From: Squalus acanthias
Taxonomy: Eukaryota
Direction of reading: 5' to 3'
Length of the DNA stretch: 64,000 nucleotides
NCBI GenBank assembly: GCA_030390025.1
Contig: CM059432.1
Span: 92,816,001-92,880,000 of the forward strand
The translations under genes and the position numbers were made by a program. The notes under the pieces are model-generated. The model was given only the letters and a program-made list of their open reading frames with translations, was not told the origin of the DNA and did not search any database. Positions 6,885-64,000 of the stretch are shown here, piece by piece; position 1 is the stretch's first letter, and every line of letters begins with the position of its first letter.

Positions 6885-7233
6885 GGGTATGGTAGCATAG
6901 TGGTTATGTTACTGGACTAGTAATCCAGAGGCCTGGATTAATGATCTGGATGGGACATGAGTTCAAATGCCCACCACAGCAACTAGGGAATTTGAATTCA
7001 GTTAATTAAATAAATCTGGAATTTAAAGCTAGTATCAGTAATGGTGACCATGAAACTGCCGGATTGTTGTAAAAACCCATCTGGTTCACTAATGGCCTTT
7101 AGAGAAGGAAATCTGCCGCCCTCACCTGGCCTACATGTGAGCCTTAACTGCCCCGTGAAATGACCTAGCAAGTCACTCAGTTGTATAAGGCGGCTCACCA
7201 CCACCTTCTCAAGGGCAATTAGGGGTGGGCAAT
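6885..7233 (+). mobile_element. tRNA-headed SINE-like element made of the 5' region and 3' tail of the LINE family at 33264-37226
   Basis: A box TAGCATAGTGG 6893-6903; anticodon arm CTGGA-CTAGTAA-TCCAG 6912-6928; B box GTTCAAATGC 6961-6970. 6885-7185 matches rc of 36917-37226, and 7186-7233 matches the LINE 3' tail (rc of ~61885-61935). Confidence 0.85.
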
Positions 7234-26300: not shown

Positions 26301-28081
26301 TAAGGATAAGGGGTAAGCCATTTAGGACAGAAATGAGGAGGAATTTCTTCACCCAGAGAGTGGTGAACCTGTGGAATTCTCTGCCACAGAAGGCAGTAGA
26401 GGCCAATTCAATAAATAGATTCAAGAAGGAGTTGGATATATTTCTTAAGGCTAAAGGGATCAAGGGATATGGGGAGAAAGCAGGGACAGGGTACTGAATT
26501 TGGATGATCAACCATGATCGCATTGAATGGCAGAGTAGGCTAGAGGGGCCGAATGGCCTACACCTGCTCCTATCTTCTATGATTCTATGCTTTCCTAATT
26601 GCTTGCTGTACCTGCATGTTAACTTTCTGTGATTTGTTTACAAGGACACCCAGGTCCCTCTGAACACCAACATTTCCCAATCTCTCACCATTTAAAAAAT
26701 ACTCTGCTTTTCTATTTTTCCTACCAACGTGGATAACTTCACATTTCTCCACATTATATTCCATTTGCCATGTTCTTGCCCACTCACTTAGCTTGTCTAT
26801 ATCCCCTTGAAGCCTCTTTGCATCCTCCTCACAACTTACATTCCCACCCAGCTTTGTATCATCAGCAAACTTGGATATATTACATTTGGTCCCCTCATCC
26901 AAATCATTGATATAGATTGTGAATAGCTGAGGTCCAAGCACTGATCCTTGCGGTACCCCACTTGTTACAGCCTGCCAACTCGAAAATGACCCGTTTATTC
27001 CTACTCTCTGTTTTCTGTCCGTTAACCAATCCTCAATCCATGCTAGTATATTACCCCCAATCCCATGAGCCCTAATTTTGTTTAATGTGTGGCACCTTAT
27101 CGAATGCCTTCTGAAAATCCAAAAACGCCACATCCACTGGTTCCCCCTTATCTATTCTGCTAGTTACAACCTCCAAAAACTCTAACAGATTCGCCAAATA
27201 CGATTTCCCTTTCATAAATCCGTGTTGACTCTGCCTAATCCTATTGTTATTTTCTAAGTGCCCTGTTACCATGTCCTTAACAATAGATTCTAGCATTTTC
27301 CCTACTATTGATGTCAGGATAACTGGTCTGTAGTTCCCCGTTTTGTCACTCCCTCCTTTCTTAAATAGTGGGGTTACATTTGCTACCTTCCAATCTGCGG
27401 GAACCGTTCTAGAATCTGTGGAATTTTGGAAAATGACAACCAATGCATCCACTATCTCTATAGCCAACTCTTTCAAAACCCAAGGATGTAGGCCATTAGG
27501 TCCATGGGATTTATTGGCTTTCAGTCCCATTAATTTCTCCAGTACTATTTTTTTACTAATACTAATTTCTTTCAGCTGCTCATTCTCGCTAGACCCTTGG
27601 TTCTCCACTATTTCTATTTTTCTCTGATGTCACCTTAGTCACTGATGCCTTATTACCTTTGTTACTCTCTCTGTCCCTTCCTCACCCACTCTGCTTATCT
27701 TTACCCAAAACTCTCTAGAGCCTTGACATTTCTCTCGCTGCTTTTAAATTTACTCTTTCCTGAATCCTCCCGCCTCCTCCCACTTCATTCGTTTAGAGCC
27801 CTGTTTAGTGTCCCAGTTATTCGGTTCACCAGGACACTGGTCCCAGCCCGGTTTAAGTGGAGCCCGTCCCAACGGAACAGCTCCCTCTTTCCCCAGTAGT
27901 GGTGCCAGTGCCCCATGAACTGAAACCCCTTCCTCCCATACCACTCTTTGGGCCATGCATTTAAACCTCTAATCTGTTTGTCCCTATGCCAATTTGCGCG
28001 TGGCTCAGTTAACAATCCAGAGATTATTACCTTTGAGGTTCTGCATTTTAATTTGGATCCTAGCTCCTGAAACTGCCTCAC
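23304..28081 (-). mobile_element. CR1 LINE split by an antisense CR1 insertion, with an internal deletion near 27625
   Basis: 3' part 23304-23962; RT part 26588-27625; ORF1 esterase C-terminus 27785-28081 (DGLHLN); TGCT duplicated at 23959-23962 and 26588-26591. Confidence 0.9.
23963..26587 (+). mobile_element. Young 5'-truncated CR1 with ORF2 open to its natural stop (24002-26497)
   Basis: 831-aa partial APE + RT frame; TTCTATGATTCTA tail; 4-bp TGCT duplication. Confidence 0.96.
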
Positions 28082-28756: not shown

Positions 28757-31700
28757 TAGGTAAAAAGCGGGAAGAGGTCCTACAAGCAGAATTTAGGGAG
28801 CTAGGAGCTAAATTAAAAAGTAGGACCTCTAAGGTAGTAATCTCTGGATTGCTACCAGGGCCACGAGCTAATCAGAATAGAGAGAACAGGATAGTGAGAT
28901 TGAATACGTGGCTTGAGCAGTGGTGCAGGAGGGAGGGATTCAAATTCCTGAGGCATTGGAACCAGTTCTGGGGGAAGTGGGACCTGTACAAAAGGGACGG
29001 TCTGCACTTGGGCAGGACTGGAACCGATGTCCTCGGGGTAATATTTGCTAAAGCAGTTCGGGAGGATTTAAACTAATATGGCAGGGGAAGGGGAACCTAT
29101 GTAGCGAAACAGGGGGAAGTAATATGCAGTCAGAAACAAATGTTAGAAGGGTGAGAAACAATAGGGGAAGGCCGAGTAAACAAAGGCAAGAAACACAAAG
29201 GGCCATACTAAATCATAAGTCTAAAAGGACAAAGGATGTTAATAAAATAAGCCTAAAGGCTCTGTGTCTTAATGCAAGGAGTATCCGTAATAAGGTGGAT
29301 GAATTGACTGTGCAAATAGATGTTAACGGATACGATGTGATTGGGATTACAGAGACGTGGCTCCAGAACAATCAAGGCTGGGAACTGAACATCCAGGGGT
29401 ATTCAACATTCAGAAAGGATAGAATAAAAGGAAAAGGGGGTGGGGTAGCATTGCTGGTTAAAGAGGAGATTAATGCAATAGCTAGGAAGGACATCAGCTT
29501 GGAGGATGTGGAATCAATATGGGTTGAGCTGCAGAACACCAAAGGGCAGAAAACGTTAGTGGGAGTTGTGTACAGACCTCCAAACAGCAGTGGTGAGGTG
29601 GGGGAGGGTATGAAACAGGAAATCAGAGGTGCGTGCAAAAAAGGCACGGCAGTTATCATGGGTGACTTTAATATGCATATAGATTGGGCTACTCAAACTG
29701 GAAGCAAACTCGAAGTGGAGGAGGATTTCCTGGAGTGTTTAAGGGATGGTTTCCTAAACCAATATGTTGAGGAACCAACTCGAGGGGAGGCCATCCTGGA
29801 CTGGGTGTTGTGTAATGAGGAAGGACTAATCAGCAATCTTGTGGTACGAGGCCCCCTGGGGAAGAGTGACCATAGTATGGTGGAGTTCTACATTAGGATG
29901 GAGAAGGAAACAGTTAAGTCAGAGACCATGGTCCAGAACTTAAATAAGGGCAACTTTGATGGTATGAGGCGTGAATTGGCGAGGTTAAATTGGCAAGCGA
30001 TATTTAAGGGGCTATCAGTGGAAGGGCAATGGCAGACATTTAGAGATCGCATGGATGAACTACAACAATTGTACATCCCGGTCTGGCGTAAAAATAAAAA
30101 AGGGAAGGTGGCTCAACCATGGCTAACAAGGGAAATCAGGGATAGTATTAAAACCAAGGAAGCTGCATACAAATTGGCCAGAAGTAGCAGCAAACCCGGG
30201 GACTGGGAGAACTTCAAAACTCAGCAAAGGAGGACGAAGGGTTTGATTAGGGCAGGGAAAATAAAATATGAAAGGAAGCTTGCAGAGAACATTAAAATGG
30301 ACTGCAAAAGCTTCTATAAATATGTAAAAAGAAAGAGGTTAGTAAAAACAAACGTAGGTCCCCTGCAGTCGGAAACAGGGCAAGTCGTAATGGGGAACAA
30401 GGAAATGGCAGATCAATTGAACAAGTACTTTGGTTCGGTGTTTACTGTGGAGGACACACACAACCTGCCGGAAATAAAAGGGGTCGGAGGATCTGGTAAG
30501 AGGGAGGAGCTGAGGGAAATCCTTATTAGTCGGGAAAAGGTATTGGGGAAATTGATGGGACTGAAGGCTCAAAAATCCCCGGGGCCTGATGGTCTGCATC
30601 CCAGAGTACTTAAGGAGGTGGCCTTGGAAATAGTGGATGCATTGACGATCATTTTCCAACATTCCTTAGACTCTGGATCAGTTCCGATGGAGTGGAGGGT
30701 GGCCAATGTAACCCCTCTTTTTAAAAAAGGAGGGAGGGAGAAAGCAGGGAATTATAGACCGGTCAGCCTGACATCGGTCGTGGGTAAAATGATGGAAGCA
30801 ATTATTAAAGATGTCATAACAGACCATTTGGAAAGTGGCGACATGATAGGTCCAAGTCAGCATGGATTTGTGAAAGGGAAATCATGCATGACAAATCTTC
30901 TGGAATTTTTTGAGGATGTTTCCAATAGGGTGGACAGGGGGGAACCAGTAGATGTGGTGTATTTGGACTTTCAGAAGGCCTTCGACAAGGTCCCACACAA
31001 GAGATTGGTGAGCAAAGTTAAAGCACATGGGATTGGGGGTAATGTGTTGACGTGGATTGAGAACTGGTTGGCACACAGGAAACAAAGAGTAGGAGTAAAT
31101 GGGTACTTTTCACAATGGCAGGCAGTGACCAGCGGGGTACCGCAGGGTTCGGTGCTGGGACCCCAGCTGTTTACATTATATATTAATGATTTGGACGAAG
31201 GGATTAAATGTAATATCTCCAAATTTGCGGATGACACTAAATTGGGAGGCAGTGTGAACAATGAGGAGGATGCTAGGAGGCTACAGAGTGACTTGGACAG
31301 GTTGGGTGAATGGGCAAATGTATGGCAGATGAAGTACAATGTGGATAAATGTGAGGTTATCCACTTTGGTGGTAAAAATAGAGAGGCGGACTATTACCTG
31401 AATGGTGGCAGATTAGGGAAAGGGGAGGTGCAACGAGACCTGGGCGTCATGGTACATCAGTCACTGAAGGTGGGAATGCAAGTGCAGCAGGCAGTCAAGA
31501 AAGCAAACGGAATGATGGCCTTCATAGTAAGGGGATTTGAGTACAGGAGTAGGGAGGTGATGCTGCAGTTGTACAGGGCCTTGGTGAGGCCACACCTGGA
31601 GTATTGTGCGCAGTTTTGGTCTCCTAACTTAAGGAAGGACATTCTTGCTATTGAGGGAGTGCAGCGAAGGTTCACTAGATTGATTCCTGGGATGGCCGGA

Positions 31701-32164
31701 CTGACATATCAAGAAAGATTGGGTCAACTGAACTTGTATCCTCTGGAGTTCAGAAGAATGAGGGGGGATCTTATAGAGACATTTAAAATCCTGACTGGTT
31801 TAGACAAATTAGATGCGGGCAGAATGTTCCCAATGTTAGGGAAAACTAGAACCAGGGGTCACAGTCTAAGGATTAAGGGGAAGCCATTTAAGACTGAGCT
31901 GAGGAGGAACTTCTTCACCCAGAGAGTGGTGAATCTATGGAATTCTCTTCCACAGAAGGTTGTTGAGGCCAGTTCGCTAAATATATTCAAAAGGGAGTTA
32001 GATATAACACTCACAACTAGGGGGATCAAGGGGTATGGCGAGAAAGCAGGAATGGGGTACTGAGGTAGCATGTTCAGCCATGAACGCATTGAATGGCGGT
32101 GCAGGCTCGAAGGACCGAATGGTCTACTCCTGTACCTATTTTCTATGTTTCTATGTTTCTATGT
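28757..32164 (+). mobile_element. CR1 LINE with truncated ORF1 and intact ORF2
   Basis: ORF1 C-terminal half to 29076 (KVVISGLLP..DGLHL); ORF2 29124-32063; (TTCTATGT)n tail to ~32164. Confidence 0.97.
29124..32063 (+). CDS. CR1 ORF2: AP endonuclease + reverse transcriptase, 979 aa, uninterrupted
   Basis: NARSIRNK, GITETWL, YRPP, GDFN, SDH (APE); NYRPVSLTS, QHGF, DFQKAFDKV, GVPQGSVLGP, FADD (RT). True start codon uncertain. Confidence 0.93.
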   Translation: MQSETNVRRVRNNRGRPSKQRQETQRAILNHKSKRTKDVNKISLKALCLNARSIRNKVDELTVQIDVNGYDVIGITETWLQNNQGWELNIQGYSTFRKDRIKGKGGGVALLVKEEINAIARKDISLEDVESIWVELQNTKGQKTLVGVVYRPPNSSGEVGEGMKQEIRGACKKGTAVIMGDFNMHIDWATQTGSKLEVEEDFLECLRDGFLNQYVEEPTRGEAILDWVLCNEEGLISNLVVRGPLGKSDHSMVEFYIRMEKETVKSETMVQNLNKGNFDGMRRELARLNWQAIFKGLSVEGQWQTFRDRMDELQQLYIPVWRKNKKGKVAQPWLTREIRDSIKTKEAAYKLARSSSKPGDWENFKTQQRRTKGLIRAGKIKYERKLAENIKMDCKSFYKYVKRKRLVKTNVGPLQSETGQVVMGNKEMADQLNKYFGSVFTVEDTHNLPEIKGVGGSGKREELREILISREKVLGKLMGLKAQKSPGPDGLHPRVLKEVALEIVDALTIIFQHSLDSGSVPMEWRVANVTPLFKKGGREKAGNYRPVSLTSVVGKMMEAIIKDVITDHLESGDMIGPSQHGFVKGKSCMTNLLEFFEDVSNRVDRGEPVDVVYLDFQKAFDKVPHKRLVSKVKAHGIGGNVLTWIENWLAHRKQRVGVNGYFSQWQAVTSGVPQGSVLGPQLFTLYINDLDEGIKCNISKFADDTKLGGSVNNEEDARRLQSDLDRLGEWANVWQMKYNVDKCEVIHFGGKNREADYYLNGGRLGKGEVQRDLGVMVHQSLKVGMQVQQAVKKANGMMAFIVRGFEYRSREVMLQLYRALVRPHLEYCAQFWSPNLRKDILAIEGVQRRFTRLIPGMAGLTYQERLGQLNLYPLEFRRMRGDLIETFKILTGLDKLDAGRMFPMLGKTRTRGHSLRIKGKPFKTELRRNFFTQRVVNLWNSLPQKVVEASSLNIFKRELDITLTTRGIKGYGEKAGMGY

Positions 32165-33699
32165 CTTTGTCCTTCTTGATGATTGCCTCTCCTTTTTATA
32201 CAGTTTTTTGAGGCTTAGTCTTATGGTTGCTGACCCCCATAAACTGTTATCGTTATTTTTTTGTTGCAGTGTCCAGCAGGCAGGTGCACATCATGAACGC
32301 AGTGGGAAGCACTTGACCGCCATTTTAACCACCTACCCACCCTATTCCCATCAGGCAGGCAGCATTAAAACCAGCCCTTTAGAATCCATCATTTGAGAGA
32401 AAATTGATGATTCTTTAGAAATACATGTGTTAATCAAGGGTAGCTGGCACAAATTTGTTAATGGCATGTGATACTTCATGAATTTAAGAGTTTTTTAAGA
32501 TTGGATAGATAAAGAGAATGTACTGTATATCAATTTTCAGAAGGTGTCTCACAAGAGGCTTGTTAGGAAAATTCAGGCGTATGATATAAGAGGAAAGGTA
32601 ACAACATGGATAGAAAGTTGGTTGACATACAGGAAACAGAGGCCTAGAAATTGGTCCCTGCGCCAGAATGGGTAGGCCAGAGGCCCGACCCCTGCTGATC
32701 ATCCTCAGGCAGCTCACCGGCGAAGAACATTATAATTTGGGGCCGCTGCATTACCTGTATGTCTTGGGAGAAGAGGGGTGACTGGGAGAGGGAGGGATTT
32801 TCTTTTATAAAGTTAACTCTTTGGTGGCAGCCCGGTGCCAGCTTCATTCAGGGTAAACCAATTTAGTAACGGGGGCATCAATCAGGCATTATGCACCTCA
32901 TTGCATATGCGAAGGGACTAACGCCTCTTTTGATTCCTATGCCAATATGGTGATCAGCTCACATTCGGCGATAAATGTGTACAAGCCACCTGTTTTTTGG
33001 ACGCTTTATTGCTCATTTTATGCCTGTAAAACAGAATGTTGCACAGACAAGAGAAGGATTGAAAGTGGTGTACACCATGGAAATGTATCCTCTAATTATT
33101 TTTTTGGGCCGCGCGGCTCTTTTAACGGGCTGTGTGGCTCATTCAAAATTCTGTGCATGTGCGGATTTTCCATTTAAAAGCTGTTGAGCTGGCTGCACGG
33201 GACGTCCAGAGTAGCCGCGAAGCTTAAAGGGAACATTGCCACAGGGGTCAATGATACATCCGCTTTTGTTTTTTTTAATTCATTCATGGGATGTGGGTGT
33301 CGCTGGCATGGCCAGCATTTATTTCCCATCCCTAATTGCCCTTCAGAAGATGGTGGTGAGTTGCCTTCTTGAACCGCTGCAGTCAGTGGGGTGAAGGTAT
33401 TCCCACAGTGATGTTCGGGAGGGAGTTCCAGGATTTTGACCCAGCGATGATGAAGGAACGGCGATATATTTCCAAGTCAGGATGGTGTGTAACTTGGAGG
33501 GGAACTTGCAGGTGGTGGTGTTCCCTTGTGCCTGCTGCCCTTGTCCTTCTAGGTGGTAGAAGTCACGGGTTTGGGAGGTGCTGCTGAAGAAGCCTTGGCA
33601 AGTTGCTGCAGTGCATCTTGTCGATGGTACACACTGCAGCCATGGTGCGCTGGTGGTGGAGGAAGTGAATGTTTAAGGTGGTGGATGAGGTGCCAATAA

Positions 33700-34437
33700 A
33701 TGTTGGTGTTCAGAGAGATTTGGGTGTCCTCATGCAAGAAACACAGAAAGCTAGCATGCAGGTGCAGTAAGCAATAAGGAAGGCAAATGGCATGTTGGCC
33801 TTTATTGCAAGGGGGTTGGAGTATAAGAGTAAGGAAGTCTTGCGACAATTGTACAGGGCCTTGGTGAGACTACACCTGGACTACTGTGCACAGTTTTGGT
33901 CCCCTTATCTAAGGAAGGATATACTTGCCTTGGAGGCGGTGCAACAAAGGTTCACTAGATTGATTCCTGGGATGAGAGGGCTGTCTTATGATGAGAGGTT
34001 GTGTAGAAGGGGCCTATACTCTCTGGAGTTTAGAAGAATGAGAGGTGATCTCATTGAAACATTCAGGATTCTGAAGGGGATTGATAGGGTAGATGCTGAG
34101 AGGTTGTTTCCCCTGGCTGGAGTGTCTAGAACTAGGGGGCATAGTCTCAGGATAAGGGGTAGGCCATTTAAGACTGAGATGAGGAGGAATTTCTTCACTC
34201 AGAGGGTTGTGAATCTTTGGAATTCTCTACCCCAGAGGGCTGTGGATGCTGGGTCTTTGAGTATATTCAAGGCTGAGATAGATAGATTTTTGGACTCTAG
34301 GGGAATCAAGGGATTTGGAGATCGAACAGGAAAGTGAAGTTGAGGTGGATGATCAGCCATGATCTTTTGAATGGCGGAGCAGGCTCGAGGGGCTGAATGG
34401 CCTACTCCTGCTCCTATTTCTTATGTTCTTATGTTCT
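33700..34437 (+). mobile_element. CR1 3' fragment inserted into the tRNA-headed LINE
   Basis: ORF 33792-34337; (TTCTTATG)n tail; host sequence rejoins as GTGCCAAT..AAGCAGGCTGCT. Confidence 0.92.
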
Positions 34438-37147
34438 TAAGCAGGCTGCTTTGTCCTGGATGGTGTCGAGTTTCTTGAGTTGCATTCATCCAGGCAAGTG
34501 GAGAGTATTCCATCACACTCCTGACTTGTGCCTTATAGATGGTGGAAAGGCTTTGGGGAGTCAGGAAGTGAGACACTTGCCGCAGAATACCCAGCCTCTG
34601 ATCTGCTCTTGTTGCCACAGTATTTATGTGACTGGTCCAGTTAAGTTTCTGGTCTGTGGTTATCCAAAGGATGTTGATGAGGGATTCGGCGATGGTAATG
34701 CCGTTGAATGTCAAGGGGTGGTGGTTAGACTCTTGCTGTTGGAGATAGTCATTGAGTGGCACTTGTGTGGCGCAAATGTTACTTGTCCCTTATCAGCCCA
34801 AGCCTGAATGTCGTCCAGGTCTTGCTGCATGTGTGCATGGACTGCTTCATTATCTGACGAGTTGCGAATGGAACTGTGCAAACATCAGCGAACTTCCACA
34901 CTTCTGACCTTATGATGGAGGGAAGGTCATTGATGAAGCAGCTGAAGATGTTTGGCCTTAGGACACTGCCCTGAGGAACTCCTTCAGCGATGTCCTGGGG
35001 CTGAGATGATTGACCACCAACAACCACAACCATCTTCCTTTGTGCTAGGTATGACTCCAGCCAGTGGTGTTTTCCCCGATTCCCACTGACTTCAATTTTA
35101 CCAGGGCTCCTTGATGCCACACTCGGTCAGCTGCTGCCTTGATGTCAAGGGCAGTCACTCTTACCTCTCACCTCACCTCTGGAATTCAGCTCTTTTGTTC
35201 ATGTTTGGACCAAAGCTGTAATGAGGTCTGGAGCCGAGTGGTCCTGGCGGAACCCAAACTGAGCATCGGTGAGAAGGTTGTTGGTGAGTAAGTGCCGCTT
35301 GATAGCACTGTCGATGACACCTTCCATCACTTTGCTGATGATTGAGAGTAGGCTAATGGGTCGGTAATTGACCAGATTGGATTTGTCCTGCTTTTTGTGG
35401 ACCGGACATACCTGGGCAGTTTTCCACATTGTCGGGTAGATGCCAGTGTTGTAGCTGTACTGGAACAGCTTGGCTCGAGGCACAGCTAGTTCTGGAGCAC
35501 AAGTCTGCAGCACGACAGCCGGAATGTTGTCGGGGCCCATAGCCTTTGCTGTATCCAGTGTGCTTCGCCGTTTCTTGATATCACGTGGAGTGAATCGAAT
35601 TGGCTGAAGACTGGCTTCTGTGATGGTGGGGACCTCAGGAGGAGGCCGATATGAATTATCCACTCGGCACTTCTGGCTGAAGATGGTTGCAAACGCTTCA
35701 GCCTTGTCTTTTGCACTCGCGTTGTTGGGCTCCGCCATCATTGAGGATGGGGATATTCATGGAGCCTCCTCCTATCGTTAGTTGTTTAATTGTCCAGCAC
35801 TGCAGAGCTTTGATCTGATCCATTGATTATGGGATAGCTTCGCTCTGTCTATAGCATGCTGCTTCCACTGTTTAGCATCCATGTAGTCCTGTGTTGCCGC
35901 TTCCCCAGGTTAGCACCTCAGTTTTAGGTACACCTGGTGCTGCTCCGAGCATGCTCTTCTGCACTTCTCATTGAATCAGGGTTGGTCCCCTGGCTTGATG
36001 GTAATGGTAGAGTGAGGGATATGCCAGGCCATGAGTTTACAGAATGTGGTGGAATACAATTCTGCTGCTGCTGATGGTCCACAATGCCTCATGGATGCCC
36101 AATTTTGAGCTGCTAGATCTGTTCTGAATCTATCCCATTTAGCACGGTGGTAGTTCCACACAACACGATGGAGGGTGCCCTCAGTGTGAAGACGGGATTT
36201 CATCTCCACAAGGACTGTGTGATGGTCACCGCTACCAATGCTGTCATGGACAGATGCATCTGCGACAGGTAGATTGGTGAGGACAAGGTCAAGTATGTTT
36301 TTTCCCTCATGTTGGTTCTCTCACCACCTGCCGCAGGCCCAGTCTGGCAGCTATGTCCTTCAGGACTCGGCCAGTAGTGGTGCTACTGAGCCACTCTTGG
36401 TGATGGACATTGAAGTCCCCTACCCAGAGTGCATTCTGTGCCCTTGTTACCCTCAGTGATTATTCCAATTGGTGTTCAACATGGAGGAGTACTGATTCAT
36501 CAGCTGAGGAAGGGCGGCAGGTGATAATCAGCAGGAGGTTTCCTTGCCTATGCTTGCCATGAACCCATGAGACTTCATGGGGTCCAGAGTCAATTTTGAG
36601 GACCCCCAGGGTCACTCCCTTCTGACTGTATACCACTGCCGGTGGGACAGGACATACCCAGGGATAGTAATGGAGGAGTCTGGGACATTGGCTGAAAGGT
36701 ATGATTCTGTGAGTATGACTATGTCAGGCTGTTGCTTGACTAGTTTGTGGGCCAGCTCTCCCAATTTTGGCACAATTCCCCACGTGTTAGTGAGGAAGAC
36801 TTTGCAGGGTTGACTGGGCTGGGTGTGCCATTTTCGTGTCCGAAGCCGGTGTCAAGGTCAGTGTCGAGTGGTTCGTCCCGTTTCATTCTTATTATTGCTT
36901 TTCGTAGCGGTTTGTTGCAACTGAGTGGCATGCTAAGCCATTTCAGAGGGCAGTTAAGAGTCAACCACATTGCTGTGGGTCTGGAGTCACATATAGGCCA
37001 GACCAGGTAAGGGCAGCAGATTTCCTTCCCGAAAGGGCATTGTTTTTAACGACAATCCGATAGTTTTATGGTCACCATTACTGATACTAGCTTTTTATTC
37101 CAGATTTATTTAATTAACTGAATTTAAATTCCCCAGCTGCCATGGTG

Positions 37148-37222
37148 GGATTTGAACTCACATCTCCAGATCATTAGTCCAGGCTTTTGGATTACTAGTC
37201 CAGTAACATAACCACTATGCCA
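37148..37222 (-). promoter_or_regulatory. tRNA-type (Pol III type 2) internal promoter at the LINE 5' end
   Basis: A box TGGCATAGTGG (rc 37212-37222), anticodon arm CTGGA-CTAGTAA-TCCAA (rc 37187-37203), B box GTTCAAATCC (rc 37148-37157). Confidence 0.75.
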
Positions 37223-39748
37223 CCGTTCACGTTTTTGATGCATATGTAGATGATTTGGGCTTGAGTACAGGGAGAACAATCTCAAATTTCTGATAACATT
37301 AAAGGAATTTTGGCAAATAATGAGGACGACTGTAAAAGACTTCAGGAAGATATCGACAGGTTAACTGAATGGGCAGACAGATGGTAGATGCAACTTAGTA
37401 TGGATAAGTGTGAAGTAAAGTATTTTGGGGAAAAATAAACCAAAGAATGGGAGTATACACTTAATAGAAAGACACTGAAGGACACTGCGGATAAACAGAG
37501 ACCTAGGAATTACAATACATAATTGCTTGAAAGTGCAAGTGCAGGTAGATAAAGCCATAAAAAAGCCAATAGAATTTGTGTTTTATAAATAGGAACATAG
37601 AGTATAAAAGTAAAATTATGATTAATATATACAAAACATTGGTTAGGCTACAATTAGAGTGCTGTGTGCAGTTTTGGGCATCCATTATAGAAAGGACATT
37701 AAAACCATAGACACCATTCAGTACATAGATTCACCAGGATGTAGCAGAGATAGGAAATTATTTTCATGAGGAGAGATTTGAAATACTGGGACTATTCTCA
37801 CTGGAGCAAATGCTAAGAGGAGATTTAATAGATACTTCTAAAATCAGGAAATGTTTTGATGTGAACAGGGAAAGACTATTTCCTTTGTCTGGGGAGTCAG
37901 TGGCAAGGGAGTCATCAATTTAAAATTATTACTGAGAGTAAGGAGAGAGGTTGGAAGAAATGTCTTCATGCAGAGCTATTGGAGGATGGAACACTTTGCC
38001 AGAGGGAGTGGTTGAGGCAGAAACCATTGTGTCTTTTAAAGGAAATATTGATAAATATTTGTTGCAGAGGAAGATACAAGGCTATGGGGGGAGAGCAGGG
38101 CAGTGGGATCAGCTTTGGATTGCCCGAGCAAAGAGTTGGCAGAGACACAATGGGCTGAGTGATCTCCTGTGCTGTGAATTTCTATGGTTCTTTGGTTCTA
38201 TGGACTGGTATTGGTGGGCTGACAAACTGTGCAGCTGATATGTGTCAGTGGAGAGGAACAGTTCTCAGTCAGCCCAGTAATTAGAGCATTCTGCTTTCAC
38301 AGAGAGTTGATATTTCATACTTCTTGAGCCAAGTAAATATTCTTATATTGTTCCAGCCATAGAGCAGGGTTTGTTTCCAAAGCTGAGCATATAGCACCAA
38401 TTTGTTCATTTTGGCTTTCTAGCTGAAGAAAGAACTAGTGGATTTGAGAAGCAGCTGTGAGGGAAAAAAAGGAATCCAAGTTGAATAAAATTTCTGCTCC
38501 TTTAGAGATACTGTGCATTATATACCATTACTTTTTGTAATGTTGACACGCCTCTTTTTCCTTAATGCTGAAATAGTTCCTTTACTTGATGGTTTCAATT
38601 TACTCCCCACTCACTTAATTACCAAACATTTCCAATTGGAAACATGAAACCAACCTGCTAGCATACTGAAGCATAATAGAATTCTGCCTTTTGGATACAG
38701 TAGTGTCAACTCTCCTATATTGATGGATTTTGTGCATTTCATAAACTAACAGATAAATGTACAGGCTAATATTTGAATTGGAGATGTATCAGGTATCAGT
38801 TTGAAATGATACCTGATAGAGTGATCTGCACAGAGTGGTCTTAAACAGAGTGCTTCTAAGCAGACTGTTAAACTTGGGAATTTGGAGAGAGTGGGAGTCT
38901 CTGGGAAGTTCTGGGTGTTGTTTGAGCTGCTGCTGCAGAGAGAGAGTTCTCTCTGTGTGAGGAAGAGGTGTTTCTACTGCTGATACTGAGGTGCCTGAAC
39001 AGAGGAGAGGGAAGAGGGAGAGAAAAAGACCAGAAGAGAGCAATTCTCCATTGCCTCCCTTAATTGCCTTCTTGTTGGCTCTCCATTTTGGGAGAGGGAG
39101 AGAGGGGAGGAAGAGACTATCATGACAACAACCAGAAAGAACATCATCTGTTTGGAAGGAGGAAGAGCCAAATCAACATTTAACAACAACAACAGCTGAG
39201 TGTTTTGGTGCACTCTCCACAAGAGACTGTGACTTGTAGGTGGGGGGAGGAAAGAAGAAAAAGGCCGGACATCGTGGGTGTGTGTGTGTGTGGCTCTTGT
39301 TAATAAATGTGCCTCACACACTACTAATAAACACCCCTCCCCCATTGCCTGGCCCATCAATAAGACCTGGTGGAGGACTGTGCCTGGGCATTTCCAACTA
39401 TCCCAGGCGAAGACACCTTCTCCCCCCACCAGAAGAACATCATTGTTATAGACAGTGTGATTCCATCAGAGAGTGCACCCCTGCAAGCACCCACCCACCA
39501 TCGTGAGTGGCGACCCCGCCCCTGCGGCCTCCCTCCTTCCCCCTCCCTTTTCTTTTTCTCTCTCTCTCTGAGAGGCACCTCTATTCTTTTATTTGATTGA
39601 TTATTGAGCATAAAAAAGGGAGAAGTGTGTTTTCATTTGAGAACACCCTCTGCTCAAGGAACATAATACCTAAGGCCCCAATTACAAACATCGGGCCTGA
39701 GTCTTGGGGTGAGTGTAGCTCTTAAAAAAAAAAAAAGAACACCCATCA

Positions 39749-41846
39749 ATGGCAACTCCATCTTCGCTGGTGGCGGGGTCAGCGAGGACGTACGCGGGCG
39801 TGGCAGCAGCAGCTGCTCCTGCTGCCCCGTCACCTTTTAAACTAATCACAAAACAACATGGGGTCAAAAGCTACACTCACCCCAACATGACAATTGAGGC
39901 TTGCGTGAAAGCCATGGCTGGGGTTGTCGGCCCCTCAGCCATCGTTGCAGTCTCAAAGATGTACAGGAAGGCTGTGTTCTTCCTGAGTCGGAGCAGGCGG
40001 TGTCCCTTGCCCTAAATAAGGGGCTCACAGTGGGCAGGACTTTCCTGCCGGTGGACTCCCTTGAGGCCACAGCGCAGCGAATTGTACTCTCCAATGTCCC
40101 GCCCTTTGTCCCCGTTGAGCTCCTCCTCCCCCATCTACGTCAACTGGAGGAGGTGAGGTTGGGGATAATGCCGATCGCGCTCGGCTTCAAGGAGGCCAGC
40201 CTCTGTTACGTCTTCTCCTTCCGCGCTAGCTGAATACAAAGCTGGTGCGGGAGGAGGACACGGAGGATGCATTCTTAGTGCACCATGAAGGGACAGCCCT
40301 TCAGGACGTCGGATGGTGTGCGGTGCCACGCCTGTAAGGAGGTGGGGCACGTATGTAAAAACTGCCCCGCCTACAAGGCCACTAAAACACCTAAAGCGGC
40401 CGAGGCTGGCGCCGCCACCACTCCTCCTCCTGTTCCCGTCCAGGCGTCGGAACCACCATATGAGCGGGCGACGTCGGAGGCCAATACCAGCACGGCCTCC
40501 GGCAGGGGGGAGGGAGAGCGTCTGAGTGGAAGGAAGGAAGGCGAAAGAAAAAACATCTAGAGGCGAGTCCCTCAGACATCCCAAACGGCCCCATAACTGC
40601 GCTCGCCCCGAACACCGTGGCAACCGTGAGCGCGAGGGATCCTGTGCCCGAGCCCGTGACCGTACTCGCTCCTGCAGAGAATTTGAAACCCGCAGTCGGG
40701 CTCGGGCCTGGGAAAGAGACACAGAAGGAGGGAGCGGAGGTGGAGACCTCGGCAGATATGGAGGTCTCTCTACCTCTGTGTCCCTCCGGATTAAAAAGGC
40801 ACCGCTCCTTGGAAGCGGAGGAGGACCTAGAGGAAGGAGGTCCTTCCATCCAAGAGGAGTTGGCGCCCATCGCGGGTCCGGCGCCAACCCCCACCTCCAC
40901 CAACACGTGACGTCGGCGGGAGTCGCTCGTCCCTCGGGAGGGTGAGACAGCTCCGTCTCTCCGGCCTGTGCCTCCCGGGGATGGGGAAGAAGCCCTGCCC
41001 GTGGGGTGGGGGGGAGTCGCTGAACCTCCCACCGTCACTTTTGTTACTACAGCACCACAACTGTTACTCGTCGCCGGGTTGGGCGTTCTGGGGGCTGAGG
41101 CAGGCGAGGCCGATGAGGCTGACCTCGCCCAGTCACACCCTGACATCTCCCTGGAACTGCTCGACCTGGTGGAGGATTGTAATCAAAACACCCCGCCCGC
41201 TTGGGTGGTGGCGGGGTGGGGGGGAGGGCCCCCTATCTCCGTCTCTGACACTGGTGCCGGGTGTGTTGGAGGAACTGGGTATGGTTTTCTCCCCGGTTTC
41301 TCCACACGCCCCGGCACCTGAGGCGGGGGGAGACCCGAACCGCTGCCACCTCCTGGCCCAACACCCCTGGAGGAGCCCAAGGGGGACTCCTCCGCCGTCG
41401 ATCCTGGGGGTGGGATCGTGACAGAGGTTGGGCTAGCTGGTGTGGCCAAACCATTCGCTGTACCCTGTGCGGTGTACTGATCGGCCGCTGACGACGACCT
41501 CCGGGAGGAGGACGGGGGCTCGGTGGAGGGCACTGGGGATGATTTGGACTCCATCGCCAGTCAGGCGGTGGATGACCTCGTGCCCCCTACCAAGTCTCCC
41601 CTCATCCCCGTTGTGGAACTCTGGGAATTTCTGTTGGAATGCCTGAGTCGTCGCGATAAGATCCAGCTGGCCCTCGACAGGTGGTCGGTGCTGGCGCCGC
41701 TCATCAGGACCGTCCGCACTGCTGTTAAGACCCTGGGCGCGGACAAGGACGTGAGCCATCATGAGCTGCGCCGGCTGAAGACGTTCCTCACTGGGCTGCT
41801 GAGGGAGTGGAGGATAATGAGCGACTTCGCTCTCTCCCCACAGTAG
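39749..41846 (+). pseudogene. Tx1 ORF1 (gag-like, zinc knuckle), frameshifted
   Basis: MATPSS..IVAVSKMYRKAVFFL, LSNVPPF, VRCHACKEVGHVCKNCP, and a long Pro/Ala-rich region. Confidence 0.8.
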
Positions 41847-41876
41847 GTTAGGTAGAGGTTGCACTGTGCTCTTGTC

Positions 41877-44800
41877 ATGAAGATAACCATAGCCAGACTC
41901 AGCATCAATGGCAGCAGAGAGGCGCACTGCAGATTTATTAACTTCTTGTTCCTTTAGGAAGGGAAGTATGGGGGTGTGTTTCCTGCAGGAAACCCACACC
42001 GTTCCGGGAGACGAGGCTACGTGGCTCCTGGAATGGCAAGGACAGGTCCGCATGAGTCACCTCGCTACCACTTCTTGCGGGGTGGCTATCTTGCTGGAGC
42101 CACATTTTCAGCCGGAGATCTTGCGGGTCAAGGAGCCAGAGCCTGTGCCATGCCACTTGCTCCATCTCACTGTTGGCGTGCTGCTCCATCTAGTGAACAT
42201 GTACGCCCCCCAGACCGGTGCGGAACAAGTGTGCTTCTTTGAAGAAGTGTCTGCTCTTTTAGCTTTCATCGGCGTCGGCGAGTGAATTATCCTTGGGGGG
42301 GATTTCAACTGCACCGTCGAGGAGAAGAACCATTCTGGTGCCCCGCACAGTCGAGTCCTTTGACTTGGTGGATGTCTGGCGAAATCTCCATCCCGACTGC
42401 AGCGCCTTCACTTGGGTGAGGTCTGGAGGAGGAAGGTCCAGAATCGACCGCCTTTTCATTTCCTGGGCGTGCATCTCCTGCGTTCCGTTGGCTTCCATGC
42501 AGCCAGTGCTGTGCTCAGACCACCACCTGGTGTGGGCAGAGCTCGCTCCGCTCCGTGCGCGGGGGGGTCCGTGTACTGGCATTTTAACAACCTGCTGCTG
42601 GAGGACAAATGGTTCTGGGATTCGTTCCGTCGATTCTGGGCCGACTGGAGAAGGAAGCAGGGGGGGCTTCCCCTCCTTGAGGCTATGGTGGGACGTGAGC
42701 AAGGCTCACGTCCGTCTCTTCTGTCAGGAGTACGTGAAAGAATCGACCAAGAGGCGGGAGGCCCAGGTGGGGCGGTTGGAGAAGGAGGTGCTCGACCTGG
42801 AGTCCTGTCTCAGTCAAGTCGTCGAAGAACCGGCCCTGTGGAAGGTGTATGAAGAGAAGAGGGGCGCGCTGAAGGACCTGCAGCTCGTCGGGTCCTGAGG
42901 CGCGTACGTGAGGTCACGGATCCGGTTCCTCTAGGACCTGGACCGCCGCTCCCCCTTCTTCTACTCACTGGAAAAAAGACAGCTCTTGGGGCTGCTGGCC
43001 GATGACGGAGCTCTGGTCGCGGATCCTGAGGGCATCAGTGCCGGGGCACAGGCCTATTACGAGGCTCAGTTCTCTCGGATCCGTCCAGCGAGGATGCGCG
43101 CTGAGTTTTGTGGGAGAACTTGCCGAAGGTCGGCCCAGAGGGCGCCGAACAGCTGAATGCTCCGCTGAGCCTGGCGGAGCTGACCATGGTCAGCTCTCGA
43201 GGGGCAAGTCCCCGGGGCTGGACGGCCTGACCGTGGAGTTCCACAGGGCGTTCTGGGACGTCCTGCGGGGGGCGACTACGCGCGGGTCCTGTGGAAAAGT
43301 CTGGCGACCGGGGAGATGCCTCTCTCTTGGCGCAGGGCGGTCATCGTCCTGCTGCCCAAGAGGGGTGATCTCCGCCTGCTTAAGAACTGGCGCCCGGTCT
43401 CCCTCCTTGTCACGGATTACAAGATCTTTGCCAGGGCCATGTCTGCTCGCCTTGGCACCGTGCTGGCCCACATGATCCACCCCGACCAGTCCTACACGTT
43501 CCCGGGCCAGACCATCCACAATTACATCCATCTGGTCCGGGTCCTGGTCCACCATTCGCAGAGGGCTGGTCTGTCGGTCGCCTTCCTTTCCCTCGACTAG
43601 GAGAAGGCGTTCGACAGGGTGGATCACGAATACCTCTTCGGGACTCTGCGTGTATCCGGGTTCGGGACGCATTTCATCGCCCGGATTCAACTTCTGTGCG
43701 CTGCTGCAGAGTGTCTGATTAAGATTAATGGGTCTTTGACGGCGCCCCTTCGCTTCGGGAGAGAGGTGCGTCAGGGATGCCCCTTGTCCGGCCAGTCATA
43801 TGCCATCTGCATGGAGTCTTTCCTGCGCCTCTTGCGGAAGAGGTTGACGGGATTGGCTCTGCAAGAGCCAGGCGTGGAGGTCGTCCTCTTGGCTTACGCT
43901 GATGACGTGCTCCTCATGGTCACGGATCCCGTTGACTTGTGGAGGATGCGCAAGTGCCAGCAGGTCTACTCGGCTGCGTCCTCCGCCAGGATCAACTGGG
44001 AGAAATGTTCCGGACTCCTGGTGGGTCAGTGGCGGGTGCACTCCTTGCTGGAGGAGCTCGGGCCTTTTTCCTGGAGCACCACTCATCTCCTCTACCTGGG
44101 AGTCTACCTTAGCCCTGCCAAGGAAGCCTGGCCGGCGAACTGGCAAGAGCTGGAGGCCAAAGTCACCGCTCGCCTAGGGCGTTTTACAGGACTGCTCCAA
44201 GTGCTGTTCTACAACGGTCGAGTGCTGGTCATAAATCAACTGGTGGCCGCTATGCTGTGGTACCGGTTGGTCACTTTGATCCCTCCCCCTGCGTTTGTCA
44301 CCAAGATACAGAAGAAGCTTCTTCTAGGACAAAAGGAAGCATTGGGTCTCTGCCGCGGTTCTGAGTCTCCCGCTTAGGGACGGCGGTCAGGCGCTGGTGT
44401 GCCTTCGTACCCAGGCTGCGACTTTCCGTCTTCAGACCCTGCAGAGATACCTGTACGTCGAGGATCCTCCCAAATGGTGTGTACTGGCAACGTATTTCTT
44501 TCACCAGCTGCACGGCCTCAATTACAACACGCAGCTCCTGTTTGCAAACCTAGTGGGTACTCATGCCTCCTTGTGGGAGCTGCCTGTCTTCTACCAGGAA
44601 CTGATCAGGATCTGGAACAAGGTCGCCTACAGACGGAGTTCTCCCCCGTCAGGAGTGGCGGCTATCCTTCGGGAGCCGCTGCTCAGGAATCCGCACCTGC
44701 ATGACCACAGGTTCATAAGACTGGCGGAGGGCAGGGCTCTGTCTGGCACGGTGACCAGAGTCAGGGACCTACTGGATGGCAGAGGAGCAGGTTGGATGGC

Positions 44801-60300: not shown

Positions 60301-60515
60301 GTTCCGAATGCTCCTTGCATTAAGACACAAAGCCTTCAGGCTTGTTTTTTTAACGCTCTCAGACCTATATGAATTATTATTTACTGTGACCATGTTTGAT
60401 TTAAACCGTTGAGTTCTTCGCCTTCTACTTTTGTTTTTCTCCTTCCTGTCTTTTGCTTTTATCCTTGTTTCCCTTTCCTCTGTCTCCCTGCTCAGGTTCC
60501 CAACCCCCTGCCACT

Positions 60516-61466: not shown

Positions 61467-61553
61467 GACTTACCCTTTAATTAATTAATTAAAATTAAAT
61501 TAAATGAATCCCACCAATTTCACTTCAATTAAATGATATACTCAAGGGCCCTT

Positions 61554-61716: not shown

Positions 61717-61836
61717 GTGCAGCCAAGAAAACAGTTGAGAAGCTTGACACCATCCAGGACACAGCAATTAACTTAATCAGCCTTCTTGCCATTTAATATC
61801 CACCATCAGTGCACCCTGGCTGTAATATGTACTATC

Positions 61837-64000
61837 TTTTTTTTAAATCATTTATGGGATGTGCGCGTCGCTGGCAAGGCCAGCATTTATTGCCCATCCC
61901 TATTTGCCCTTGAGAAGGTGGTGGTGAGCCGCCGCCTTGAACTGCTGCAGTCCGTGTGGTGAAGGTACTCCCACAGTGCTGTTAGGTAGGGAGTTCCAGG
62001 ATTTTGACCCAGCGACGATGAAGGATCAGCAATATACTTCTAAGTCAGGATGGTGTGTGACTTGGAGGGGAACTTGGAGGTGGTGGTGTTCCCACGCACT
62101 TGCTGCCCTTGTCCTTCTAGATGGAAGAGGTCGCGGGTTTGGGAGGTGCTGCCGAAGAAGCCTTGGCGAGTTGCTGCAGTGCATCTTGTAGATGGTACAC
62201 ACTGCAGCCACGGTACGTCGGTGGTGGAGGGAGTGAATGTTTAAGGTGGTGGATGGCGTGCAAATCAAGGAGGCTGCTTTGTCGTGGATGGTGTTGAGCT
62301 TCTTGAGTGTTGTAGGGGCTGCACTCATCCAAGCAAGTGGAGAGTATTCCATCACACTCCTTACTTGTGCCTTGTAGATGGTGGAAAGGCTTTGGGGAGT
62401 CAGGTGAGACACTCACCACAGAATACCTAGCCTCTGACCTGCTCTTGTTGCCACAGTATTTATGTGGCTGGTCCTGTTAAGTTTCTGGTCAATGCTGACC
62501 CCCAGGATTTTGATGGTGGGGGATTTGGCGATGGTAATGCCGTTGAATGTCAAGGGGAAGTGGTTAGACTCTCGCTTGTTGGAGACAGACATTGCCTGGC
62601 ACTTCTGTGGCATGAATGTTACCTGCCACTTATCAGCCCAAGCCTGAACGTCATCCAGGTCTTGTTGCATGCGGGCATGGACTGCTTCATTATCTGAGGA
62701 GTTGTGAATGGCGCTGAACACTGTGCAGTCATCAGTGAACATCCCCATTTCTAACCTTATGTTGGACGGAAGGTCATTGATGAAGCAGCTGAAGATGGTT
62801 GGGCCTAGGACACTGCCCTGAGGAACTCCTGCAGCAATGTCCTGGGGCTGTGATGATTGACCTTCAAACACCACAACCATCTTCCTTTGTGCTAGGTATG
62901 ACTCCAGCCAGTGGAGCGTTTTCCCCCCGATTCCCATTGACTTTAGTTTTACTAGGGCTCCTTGATGCCACACTCGGTCAAATGCTGCCTTGATGTCAAG
63001 GGCAGTCACTCTTACCTCACCTCTGGAATTCAGCTCCTTTGTCAATGTTTGGACCAAGGCTGTAATGAGGTCAGGAGCCGAGTGGTCTTGGCGGAACCTA
63101 AACTGGGCATCAGTGAGCAGGTTATTGGTGAGTAAGTGCCGCTTGATAGCACTGTCGATGACACCTTCCATCACTTTGCTGATGATTGACAGTAGACTGA
63201 TGGGGCGGTAATTGGCCGGGTTGGATTTGTCCTGCTTTTTGTGGACAGGACATACCTGGGCAGTTTTCCACATTGTCGGGTAGATGCCAGTGTTGTAGCT
63301 GCACTGGAACAGCTTGGCTAGAGGCGCAGCTAGTTCTGGAGCACAAGTCTTCAGCATGATAGCCGGGATGTTGTCGGAGCCCATAGCCTTTGCTGTATCC
63401 AGTGCGCTCAGCCATTTCTTGATATCATGTGGAGTGAATCGAATTGGCTGAAGACTGGCTTCTGTGATGGTGGGGACCTCAGGAGTAGGCCGATATGGAT
63501 CATCCACTCGGTACTTCTGGCTGAAGTTGGTTGCAAACGCTTCAGCCTTGTCTTTTGCACTCACGTGCTGGGATCCACCATCATTGAGGATGGGGATATT
63601 CATAGAGCCTCCTCATCCTATTAGTTGTTTAATGGTCCACCACCATTCACGACTGGATGTGGCAGGACTGCAGAGCTTTGATCTGATCCGTTGATTGTGG
63701 GATCGCTTGGCCCTGTCTATAACATGCTGCTTCCTTTTTTTAGCATGCATGTAGTCCTGTGTTGCAGCTTCCCCAGGTTGGCACCTCATTTTTAGGTACG
63801 CCTGGTGCTGCTCCTGGCATACTCTTCTGCACTCCTTATTGAACCAGGGTTGGTCCCCTGGCTTGATGGTAATGGTAGAGTGAAGGATATGCCAGGCCAT
63901 GAGGTTACAGATTGTGGTGGAATACAATTCTGCTGCTGCTGATGGCCCACAGCGCCTCATGGATGCCCAGTTTTGAGCTGCTAGATCTGTTCTGAATCTG
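61837..64000 (-). mobile_element. Second copy of the tRNA-headed LINE family (RT and 3' tail), running off the window end
   Basis: ORFs 63613-63960, 62413-63603 (NYRPISLLS, DIKAAFDRV, GVPQGSVLGP, FTDD) and 62026-62412; colinear with 33264-36130. Confidence 0.92.

Follow-up and report, generated by a model that had tools for sequence, protein, structure and literature searches.

LINEs are normally Pol II transcripts, and as a working rule LINEs are taken to be Pol II mRNAs and SINEs Pol III non-coding RNAs. The closest described relatives of the element reported here are the elasmobranch Zenon LINEs of the CR1 group (SquAca_Zenon-1, -2 and -3, and CarCar, RhiTyp, ScyCan and HypSab Zenon-1), which are ~3.3 kb long, lack an ORF1, end in a poly-A tail, and represent the same family (Stuart et al. 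2026, PMC13343379). The main text of that paper has 0 matches for "tRNA" and "polymerase III", and its covered parts do not describe for these LINEs the head, the terminator loss, or the AUG-less start considered below. A whale shark preprint (10.1101/443036) names a "CR1-Zenon like LINE", with 0 matches for tRNA in the portion covered, and the portions covered of PMC7245038, PMC3747384, PMC7140322, and the supplement of PMC4824008 hold nothing on this element. More generally, a search of the open literature, with subscription journals, Repbase, and Dfam outside its scope, returned no description of a Pol III-driven coding LINE. Lepidopteran Zenon and Persaeus resemble the present family in having a 3.3-kb single-ORF parent and internally deleted derivatives that unite its 5' and 3' parts at variable break points but, in the parts of the report covered, differ in lacking both a Pol III promoter and any homology to tRNA, 5S, or 7S RNA (PMC6740152). 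RTE-1_DAn and the elements related to it are LINEs with a tRNA-like sequence, but they belong to the RTE clade (Kojima 2018, PMC5786205, as far as covered). Among SINEs, the tRNA-derived type (SINE2) shares with our element an A/B-box tRNA head, a conserved body, a LINE-type tail, and a terminator-free body, whereas SINEs are short and non-coding and the full Zenon element encodes an APE-RT protein; only the short derivatives of Zenon are themselves short, non-coding, and non-autonomous. The shark SacSINE1, one of the tRNA-derived SINEs, combines a Deu domain with a tail of the L2-2_CM type (PMC5499810).

The window analyzed here is a stretch of 64,000 nucleotides from Squalus acanthias. Judged by its sequence, the element on its minus strand at 33269..37230 is one copy of the 3.3-kb single-ORF (APE-RT) elasmobranch Zenon family, full-length but decayed (~90-93% identity to the family consensus) and split by the 3' fragment of an ordinary CR1 inserted in the opposite orientation (33701..34439, plus strand), which lies outside the Zenon family. 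An earlier sequence-only reading had recognized this element at 33264..37226, and its true 5' start is at 37230. The 5' part of the ORF (34440..36908, minus strand) comprises a basic N-terminal extension, APE, and RT, with stops and frameshifts in this copy, and the 3' part (33332..33700, minus strand) ends at the stop codon. As that reading held, there is no room for an ORF1, the first APE strand lying at 36788, ~440 nt past the 5' end. The 3' UTR (33269..33331, minus strand) consists of an AATAAA (33323-33318), a hairpin (33316-33302), and a short oligo(A) tail, with a fold z of -3.2 for the Zenon tail; the AATAAA, ~40 nt ahead of the tail, would also suit Pol II. A second Zenon copy (61836..64000, minus strand; 96% identity to the consensus, no T4) continues past the window end, and a SINE-type derivative at 6885..7233 (plus strand) has head and leader fused straight to the 3' tail. 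Target-site duplications were not evident around 8 full-length Zenon copies.

The family is thus already catalogued as Zenon (PMC13343379): by eye, the first 92 letters of SquAca_Zenon-1 are identical to the head of the youngest subfamily found here, and identity with the published elasmobranch consensuses extended over the first 400 letters, the portion compared. Each of three subfamily consensuses contains one 874-codon open frame with no stops, in which RT was identified by an RVT_1 match and APE by homology to Exo_endo_phos proteins. Codon differences between subfamilies include 39 synonymous and 23 replacement changes, and this single APE-RT frame was under purifying selection. As in described Zenon LINEs, copies end in short oligo(A), and the family has no ORF1 and a single APE plus RT ORF. 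In an RT tree of 41 rows, none of them a labelled Zenon RT, the Zenon RT paired with a whale shark protein (100/100) among single-ORF proteins including lancelet and brittle-star ones (99/97), apart from canonical CR1. A canonical CR1 identity was rejected on the lack of an ORF1 and on the separate clade formed by window CR1 and bird CR1, and an assignment to Daphne or L2 on motifs gave way to Zenon when the published rows were compared. The properties described below do not seem to be clade-wide, as 160 related metagenome and genome-bin loci, which we take to be host DNA, are mostly T4-rich. A leader profile found nothing among these 160 loci (best E 0.2), and ARAGORN found no tRNA in 102 related loci, an uninformative result as the same tool misses the Zenon head in 8/8 copies; an Rfam scan of 11 related loci is a similarly weak test of head presence. 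One locus (L124) has a B-box-like word with no A box before it, and the viral contigs searched held no relative.

The 5' end of the element (37140..37230, minus strand) is a tRNA-derived head, and the family begins sharply at head base 1. It carries an A box (TGGCATAGTGG, 37222-37212; by eye in 7/7 published elasmobranch rows), an anticodon-arm-like hairpin (37187..37203) with loop CTAGTAA (37198-37192), an extra, variable-arm-like hairpin (37166..37182, by eye), and a B box (GTTCAAATCC, 37157-37148), all on the minus strand. Both boxes and the loop had been noted from the sequence alone, and their positions bear this out. The anticodon-arm stem pairs are retained in 93-95 of ~100 copies, with A32G giving a G-U pair, and the extra-arm hairpin shows two compensatory pair differences between the S. 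acanthias family and the published CarCar row (by eye). The B box is perfect (GGTTCGAATCC) in 3/7 published rows, matches the window-copy variant in 3/7, and is one base short in 1/7. Overall tRNA similarity is weak: Rfam matches 37144-37223 with 21 bits against a gathering score of 29 (E 0.074), and ARAGORN calls no tRNA in the head, the same blank recurring in all 8 copies examined. When the head was aligned with 9 host tRNA sequences, drawn from Ser, Thr, and Arg tRNAs only, it scored highest with Ser(GCT) (66 and 63), followed by Ser(AGA) (54-59) and Thr(AGT) (52); within this set the tRNA-Thr(AGT) likeness first proposed is outscored, and a tRNA-Thr origin is not the closest match. The cloverleaf has been lost, with an unpaired acceptor stem and a broken T stem, while the A and B boxes are retained, as expected for a promoter role.

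This head is the 5' end of the Zenon family itself. Among copies picked by features other than the head, 8/29 selected by APE DNA and 8/30 selected by distant protein begin at head base 1, and the remaining ones are scattered truncations, none with common sequence further 5' of the head. By eye, the head also stands at the start of 7/7 published elasmobranch Zenon rows (4 sharks, 1 ray), none of which has a T4 within the 400 letters compared, whereas in the hagfish and coelacanth rows the head is absent (3/3) and T4 is present (3/3). By eye, all five species represented in these published rows retain the A and B boxes, with variable sequence between and past the boxes. A chance SINE beside a truncated LINE, the risk attached to the sequence-only reading, is therefore ruled out by the stacking of headless-picked copies at head base 1 and by the 7/7 rows: the consensus 5' end does carry the head. 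From these sequence features, it seems fairly likely that Zenon is an autonomous LINE whose captured tRNA-derived head acts as an internal Pol III promoter.

Short head-plus-tail elements with many junctions exist alongside the full-length copies. In a head-picked sample, enriched for short elements by the design of the search, the leader runs directly into the tail at 58 of 105 head loci, in 42 junction bins. One possibility, which we hold to be on the unlikely side, is that the LINE received its head and leader from the short forms, these being a separate and older SINE family and not products of deletion in the LINE. An older head subfamily (39 copies, 9.2% from its own consensus vs 5.3%) was found in short form only, and SINE-LINE template switching is an accepted route in the covered part of PMC4824008. 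Against such a descent stand the 42 junction bins among 58 elements, the several junctions that lie past the leader GCT codon, within the first part of the coding frame, and the young short elements, whose leader matches that of the young LINE. Both can be compatible, with a single ancient capture followed by repeated deletions.

Downstream of the head, the leader ends in a conserved core (36906..37057, minus strand; 165 nt in the consensus and ~15 nt shorter in the window copy) that is a candidate ribosome-entry element. The sequence-only reading saw no clear in-frame ATG in this copy, and this holds for the family, in which in-frame AUG is absent from the 43 codons preceding the first APE strand; AUG-less ORF2s also occur in other LINEs (5/29 examined). 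The leader contains 8-9 upstream AUGs and would thus be a poor substrate for cap-dependent scanning. Near the end of the core, a hairpin with a 5-pair stem and a 7-nt loop CT-AGC-AA in the consensus (36921..36946, minus strand; decayed in the window copy), which overlaps a mini-frame ATG-GCC-TAG, precedes a GCT codon (36906..36908, minus strand) that is complementary to the loop AGC, in frame with APE-RT, and a candidate start region. By eye, the published rows contain the hairpin in 5/5 species and GCT in frame in 4/5, the fifth being one base short; within S. acanthias, GCT is in frame in 64/87 copies. This arrangement recalls type 6 IRESs, as described in the parts covered of PMC10275262, PMC10516663, and PMC12221177, which start without AUG beside a GCU or ACU codon through anticodon-codon mimicry at their 3' end, types 6d and 6e being 142-168 nt long compared to 165 nt for the conserved Zenon block. 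A dicistrovirus-like element in LINEs has been raised as a hypothesis (Luke et al. 2013, PMC3894237, as far as covered). The Zenon leader differs from type 6 in having no match to Rfam IRES families at E 10 and in that no nested PKII/PKIII, L1.1, SLIV, or SLV motifs were identified in it. A hairpin of this kind, 12 nt before GCT, arose in 1/20,000 shuffles, a test defined after the hairpin was noticed. The proposed loop-codon pairing amounts to 3-4 bp, GCT itself included, and the sequences compared show no compensatory substitutions across it; stem pair 303-319 is A-C, G-C, or A-T, and loop position 309 varies. Neither the whole leader nor its core (z -0.2) folds better than shuffles, and the structure seen in the core is limited to a single long hairpin that includes a compensatory pair. 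Taken together, leader-end hairpin and in-frame GCT are suggestive of a dicistrovirus-like start.

Other start sites were considered as well. The near-cognate ACG found in S. acanthias was rejected because the remaining four species have ACA or AAA in its place, as was an out-of-frame ATG 22 nt past GCT, present in the published rows but ATA in 45/87 copies and with no slippery site seen nearby. A further candidate, limited to translation and on the unlikely side, is the AUG of ATG-GCC-TAG followed by stop read-through or re-initiation, with no tRNA mimicry. The UAG-CAA stop context is a leaky one. By eye, ATG-GCC-T is found in 7/7 published rows, with the AUG in frame in 3/5 species' rows; in S. 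acanthias the AUG is in frame in 58/87 copies with a good Kozak context, and the sole head subfamily without it (GTG in 29/39) was never seen preceding an ORF. However, a second in-frame stop, TAA, prevails six codons on in each of the three coding subfamilies (29, 30, and 15 copies), and the whale shark row keeps GCT, but not the AUG, in frame (by eye, possibly a consensus error).

The shortest functional Pol III terminators in HeLa cells are TTTT and TVTTT (PMC8466645, in the part covered), and the 3.3-kb Zenon sense strand is free of both. In the window, counting confirmed the earlier observation that the plus strand has no AAAA, and hence the sense strand no T4, at either copy: 33180-37333 (4154 nt) and 61732-64000 are its longest and second-longest AAAA-free gaps. 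The first copy has 0 T4, 11 T3, and 18 A4 in 3215 sense nt, and the second 0 T4, 6 T3, and 10 A4 in 2155. Ordinary CR1 is rich in sense T4, as that reading had also stated, with 6, 7, and 5 T4 in three long ORFs and four occurrences of the CR1 motif GGAATTTTTTGAGG; CR1 ORFs in the window are also mildly terminator-poor (0.69-0.81 of expectation). Counting T4 and TVTTT together, three subfamily consensuses contain 0 terminators in sense and 19-21 in antisense, and this absence has P=0.0018 under combined UTR and codon shuffles, 0.012 for the coding part, and 0.002 with third bases matched. For T4 alone, the comparison with codon-shuffled sequences foreseen at the outset found the consensus T4-free but gave P=0.13 for the coding part and 0.04 for the whole element, such that T4 absence alone exceeds chance only modestly, the signal coming from the T3 and TVTTT tests. 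There are 4 T3 runs where 10.7 would be expected (P=0.001), A3, C3, and G3 match expectation, and the Zenon ORF ranks lowest among 88 related ORFs for each of 7 T measures. The codon test is not independent of the T-run test, and the three subfamilies, with 7 T3 sites in common, form one evolutionary sample. Individual copies contain 41 T4 in 287,569 nt, at scattered positions. With an integral head and terminators missing beyond these nulls, the original proposal is partly supported, its Thr assignment being outscored, and we consider Pol III transcription of the Zenon LINE likely.

It is, by comparison, unlikely that the head is a SINE fused as a passenger to the 5' end of a Zenon LINE that Pol II transcribes from the leader or flank, with T-run poverty as a by-product of composition. 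This explanation draws on the normal Pol II transcription of LINEs, the lack of a tRNA head or Pol III promoter in lepidopteran Zenon and Persaeus (PMC6740152, portion covered), the AATAAA before the tail, and the non-significant codon shuffle for T4 alone (P=0.13). The sense strand is indeed T-poor (19-20%), as cautioned from the outset, with C-rich third positions, for which other causes could account. Yet only T-runs are depleted, only on the sense strand, and to a level below all 87 comparison ORFs; the A and B boxes are kept amid variable sequence in five species (by eye, in published rows), and 8-9 upstream AUGs with no in-frame AUG are a bad fit to scanning. Self-cleaving ribozymes make the 5' ends of R2 and some other LINEs, and RNase P reads the acceptor stem and T stem of its substrates. 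A role of the head as a processing signal, in which an RNase P-like cut ahead of it in a host-promoter read-through transcript gives the sharp 5' end, would fit an element that starts where a mature tRNA would begin, the paired anticodon and extra arms, and an uncapped RNA likewise in need of a cap-free start, but is very improbable given that the acceptor stem is unpaired, the T stem broken, and the missing terminators left unexplained.

Under the Pol III reading, the head would have been captured no later than in the common ancestor shared by sharks and rays. TFIIIC and TFIIIB would bring in Pol III at the head, and Pol III would read the entire element and halt at the first flanking T-run, such that master copies gaining a T-run would have dropped out and terminators been purged. 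Translation of the uncapped RNA may then begin without AUG at a site fixed by the structured leader, the conserved GCT or a position next to it being the most likely place. The resulting protein would attach to the oligo(A) and the 3' hairpin and use a nick to prime reverse transcription, and internal deletions would give ready-made SINEs. In its strongest form, Zenon would live outside the Pol II and cap system altogether, being made by Pol III, purged of terminators, and translated, in the manner of dicistrovirus IRESs, through an Ala anticodon-loop mimic at GCU with no cap, AUG, or initiator tRNA, and would have persisted since the shark-ray split while giving birth, by single internal deletions, to complete SINEs with head, conserved body, and tail; extrapolated from sequence to this extent, the whole chain is rather doubtful.

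If true, an abundant, long-lived LINE running on a SINE promoter would break the working rule that separates the two classes and would provide a natural translated Pol III transcript. With reporters, the 345-nt leader makes three questions testable: the AUG-less start of LINE ORF2 proteins, the function of conserved SINE bodies, and the way in which SINE head, body, and tail come to be joined. Should the leader be a compact cap-free ribosome entry site active in vertebrate cells, it would also be a tool, and the conserved body of SINEs would, if this reading is true, be explained as a ribosome-binding relic.

The LINE at 37230 to 33269 (- strand) is, judging from its sequence, a member of an already catalogued family: the sequence-only reading had asked whether it was described, and its first 400 letters match Zenon in PMC13343379. 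That source (Stuart et al. 2026) lists Zenon LINEs lacking ORF1 and bearing poly-A tails from five elasmobranchs, coelacanth, and hagfish. In a reverse transcriptase (RT) tree of 41 rows, a phylogeny that the same reading had proposed, the element is sister to a whale shark protein, separate from canonical CR1. When the published Zenon consensus rows were compared by eye over their first 400 letters (PMC13343379 supplement), all seven elasmobranch rows opened with the same tRNA-derived head and leader; letters 1-92 of SquAca_Zenon-1 were identical to our youngest head subfamily, and the three hagfish and coelacanth rows had no such head and contained T4 runs. As far as these rows go, the head is family-wide, common to sharks and one ray; the main text of PMC13343379 contains neither "tRNA" nor "polymerase III".

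The Zenon copy is interrupted by a CR1 3' fragment of opposite orientation (33701-34439), and the copy itself sits at an A-rich site in an older CR1 fragment (37231-38000 and 33230-33268), making three nested layers from older CR1 fragment through Zenon copy to later CR1 insertion. A third piece, with head and leader fused directly to the tail, lies at 6885-7233, and a stretch at 57067-57466 (+), with 68% identity to the RT end of the family, is a putative older or sister lineage. Broken frames of a different LINE type, with RT detected, occupy 41433-45706 and are presumably Tx1/L1-like by their motifs. By motifs of their own, a frame at 2594-3379 (+), without a Pfam match, resembles a Penelope-type RT end and one at 19841-20365 (+) an RTE-type C-terminus.

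The A box, the loop CTAGTAA, and the B box were located where the sequence-only reading had placed them, and Rfam gives a sub-threshold tRNA match in the head. tRNA-Thr(AGT) is not the closest match: among the nine host tRNAs compared (Ser, Thr, Arg), tRNA-Ser(GCT) aligns best. Genes for tRNA-Ser(GCT) form large tandem arrays (period ~1,620 bp) at G000:C26:39.0-44.4 Mb (genome and contig handles), with tRNA-Arg(TCG) within the units inspected and tRNA-Thr(AGT) copies close by. The window (C8:92816001-92880000) is drawn from a 3.7-Gb genome, in which a search using nothing but APE DNA gave 40 places; 8 of the 29 copies extracted besides the query start at head base 1, 12 within its first 9 bases, and 17 within its first 55, the remainder being scattered truncations. 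A foreign protein (42% identical) found 56 places, and 8 of 30 extracted copies start at head base 1, preceded by sequences unrelated to one another. There were thousands of first-look candidates (6,226 with the APE query), a figure that is not a copy number. With base-1 starts in both sets, the head belongs to the Zenon family, at its 5' end, and is not a chance neighbour. Contigs of four runs (four other organisms, run type guessed) cover 30 of 30 bins and include head-to-tail joints.

As first claimed, the sense strand is free of T4: the + strand has no AAAA over 33180-37333, a longer AAAA-free stretch than any other in the window, and the second longest lies at the second copy (61836..64000, - strand). 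A majority consensus built from 89 segments is likewise T4-free (T4 = 0, T3 = 7, A4 = 16). By itself this absence is weak evidence, with P=0.016 under base shuffle, 0.13 under codon shuffle, 0.18 under a first-order Markov model, 0.005 when host CR1 codon usage is applied, and 0.03 when third bases are matched. The shortest functional Pol III terminators in HeLa cells are TTTT and TVTTT (PMC8466645), and together these number 0 in sense versus 21 in antisense, with 5.2 expected (P=0.0018 over the entire element, 0.012 over its coding part); depletion beyond codon shuffling was clearer for both motifs together than for T4 alone. T3 runs are also scarce (4 observed vs 10.7 expected), while A3, C3, and G3 occur at normal levels. 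In a comparison with 87 related ORFs, each 1.8 kb or longer and from mixed hosts (84 on metagenome or genome-bin contigs, 3 window CR1s), the consensus ranks lowest on seven of seven T measures, and its T3 count over base expectation is 0.26 vs 1.09 +/- 0.16. The window CR1s are themselves somewhat terminator-low (0.69-0.81 of expectation). Young ordinary CR1 copies used as controls lie at 8265-10673 (-), 23861-26497 (+), 29052-32063 (+), and 57935-61469 (-); one window CR1 has an open APE-RT frame of 1003 codons and another an esterase (GDSL) ORF1 at 60516-61469. The 110 copies fall into three subfamilies (38, 47, and 25), which have the same seven T3 sites and therefore count as one sample. 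T4 runs acquired after insertion are scattered (41 in 287,569 nt of copies), and 16 of the 30 protein-picked copies are T4-free. Related invertebrate-type loci are rich in T4 and lack the leader, so that the terminator-poor trait looks specific to elasmobranchs.

Pol III dependence has reportedly been claimed for the human L1 promoter. Transcription of the Zenon element by Pol III is likely, and the overall explanation, a Zenon LINE whose tRNA-derived head serves as an internal Pol III promoter, is reasonably probable. The SINE-type promoter of this known LINE is apparently unreported, and the literature searched, outside subscription journals, Repbase, and Dfam, yielded no account of a coding LINE driven by Pol III; Luke et al. 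2013 refer briefly to a "pol III" promoter for LINEs and put forward IGR-type IRESs in LINEs as a hypothesis (PMC3894237).

The 43 codons that separate the last stop from the first APE strand contain no in-frame AUG, their only near-cognates are ACG and AAG, and 8-9 upstream AUGs lie in the leader; translation from a non-AUG or re-initiation start appears likely. In the published rows, a near-invariant block of ~165 nt closes with a GCT, which four species have in the APE frame, the row of the fifth being one base short (by eye; PMC13343379); the GCT is in frame in 64 of 87 copies of this genome. Twelve bases 5' of it stands a hairpin whose loop, CT-AGC-AA, has an anticodon-loop shape, with AGC complementary to GCT. 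The spacer between them is the variable part; it contains TAA in this genome and has one base fewer in the whale shark row, where an overlapping ATG-GCC-TAG is therefore out of frame. Among 167 head copies, the base pair 192-264 reads T-A in 90, A-T in 39, and A-A in 12; pair 303-319 is A-C, G-C, or A-T (the last in the ray row), the whale shark row has G-C (by eye) at pair 217-235, and the core differs between old and young heads at 8 of 165 positions vs 11 of 81 directly upstream (P=0.02). These variants and the low core divergence hint at selection on structure. Several points count against an IRES-like structure: the A-T/G-C variants belong to a subfamily found only in short form, loop position 309 is variable, a change at 239 disrupts one predicted pair, and predicted pairing probabilities for these helices are low in the young consensus. 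The leader gave no IRES match in an Rfam scan and no excess folding energy, and no compensatory change links the hairpin loop with the GCT codon; the anticodon-like hairpin arose in 1 of 20,000 shuffles, by a criterion set after it was noticed. True tRNA mimicry at the start is doubtful. In size, GCU at the start, and anticodon mimic, the leader resembles type 6d/6e IRESs as presented in PMC10275262, PMC10516663, and PMC12221177; at best it would function like a type 6 IRES, and we do not class it as one. Dozens of intact animal-type LINE ORFs, evidently host DNA, occur in bacterial (symbiont) genome bins (contigs L182-L242), and many bear a 2A-like peptide (…NPGP) ahead of APE, an arrangement already published (PMC3894237).

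Subfamily consensuses are open across 874 codons, and the most distant pair differs at 39 synonymous vs 23 replacement codons (28:16 and 13:12 in the other pairs); from such counts, the Zenon protein was evidently under selection. Among 105 head-bearing loci, a sample biased toward short elements, 58 have the leader joined to the tail, 18 extend into the ORF, 24 stop with no tail close by, and 5 lack the central head. The 58 leader-tail junctions spread over 42 bins, and 56 of them keep the leader to at least position 295. Eight short elements (loci L360, L361, L363, L364, L365, L369, L378, and L284) have one common junction (346 to 3162), and at least one deletion derivative has therefore amplified as its own SINE subfamily. 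Lepidopteran Zenon, as described in PMC6740152, likewise produces deletion derivatives, though these have no Pol III promoter, whereas in shark Zenon the deletion gives a complete tRNA-headed SINE.
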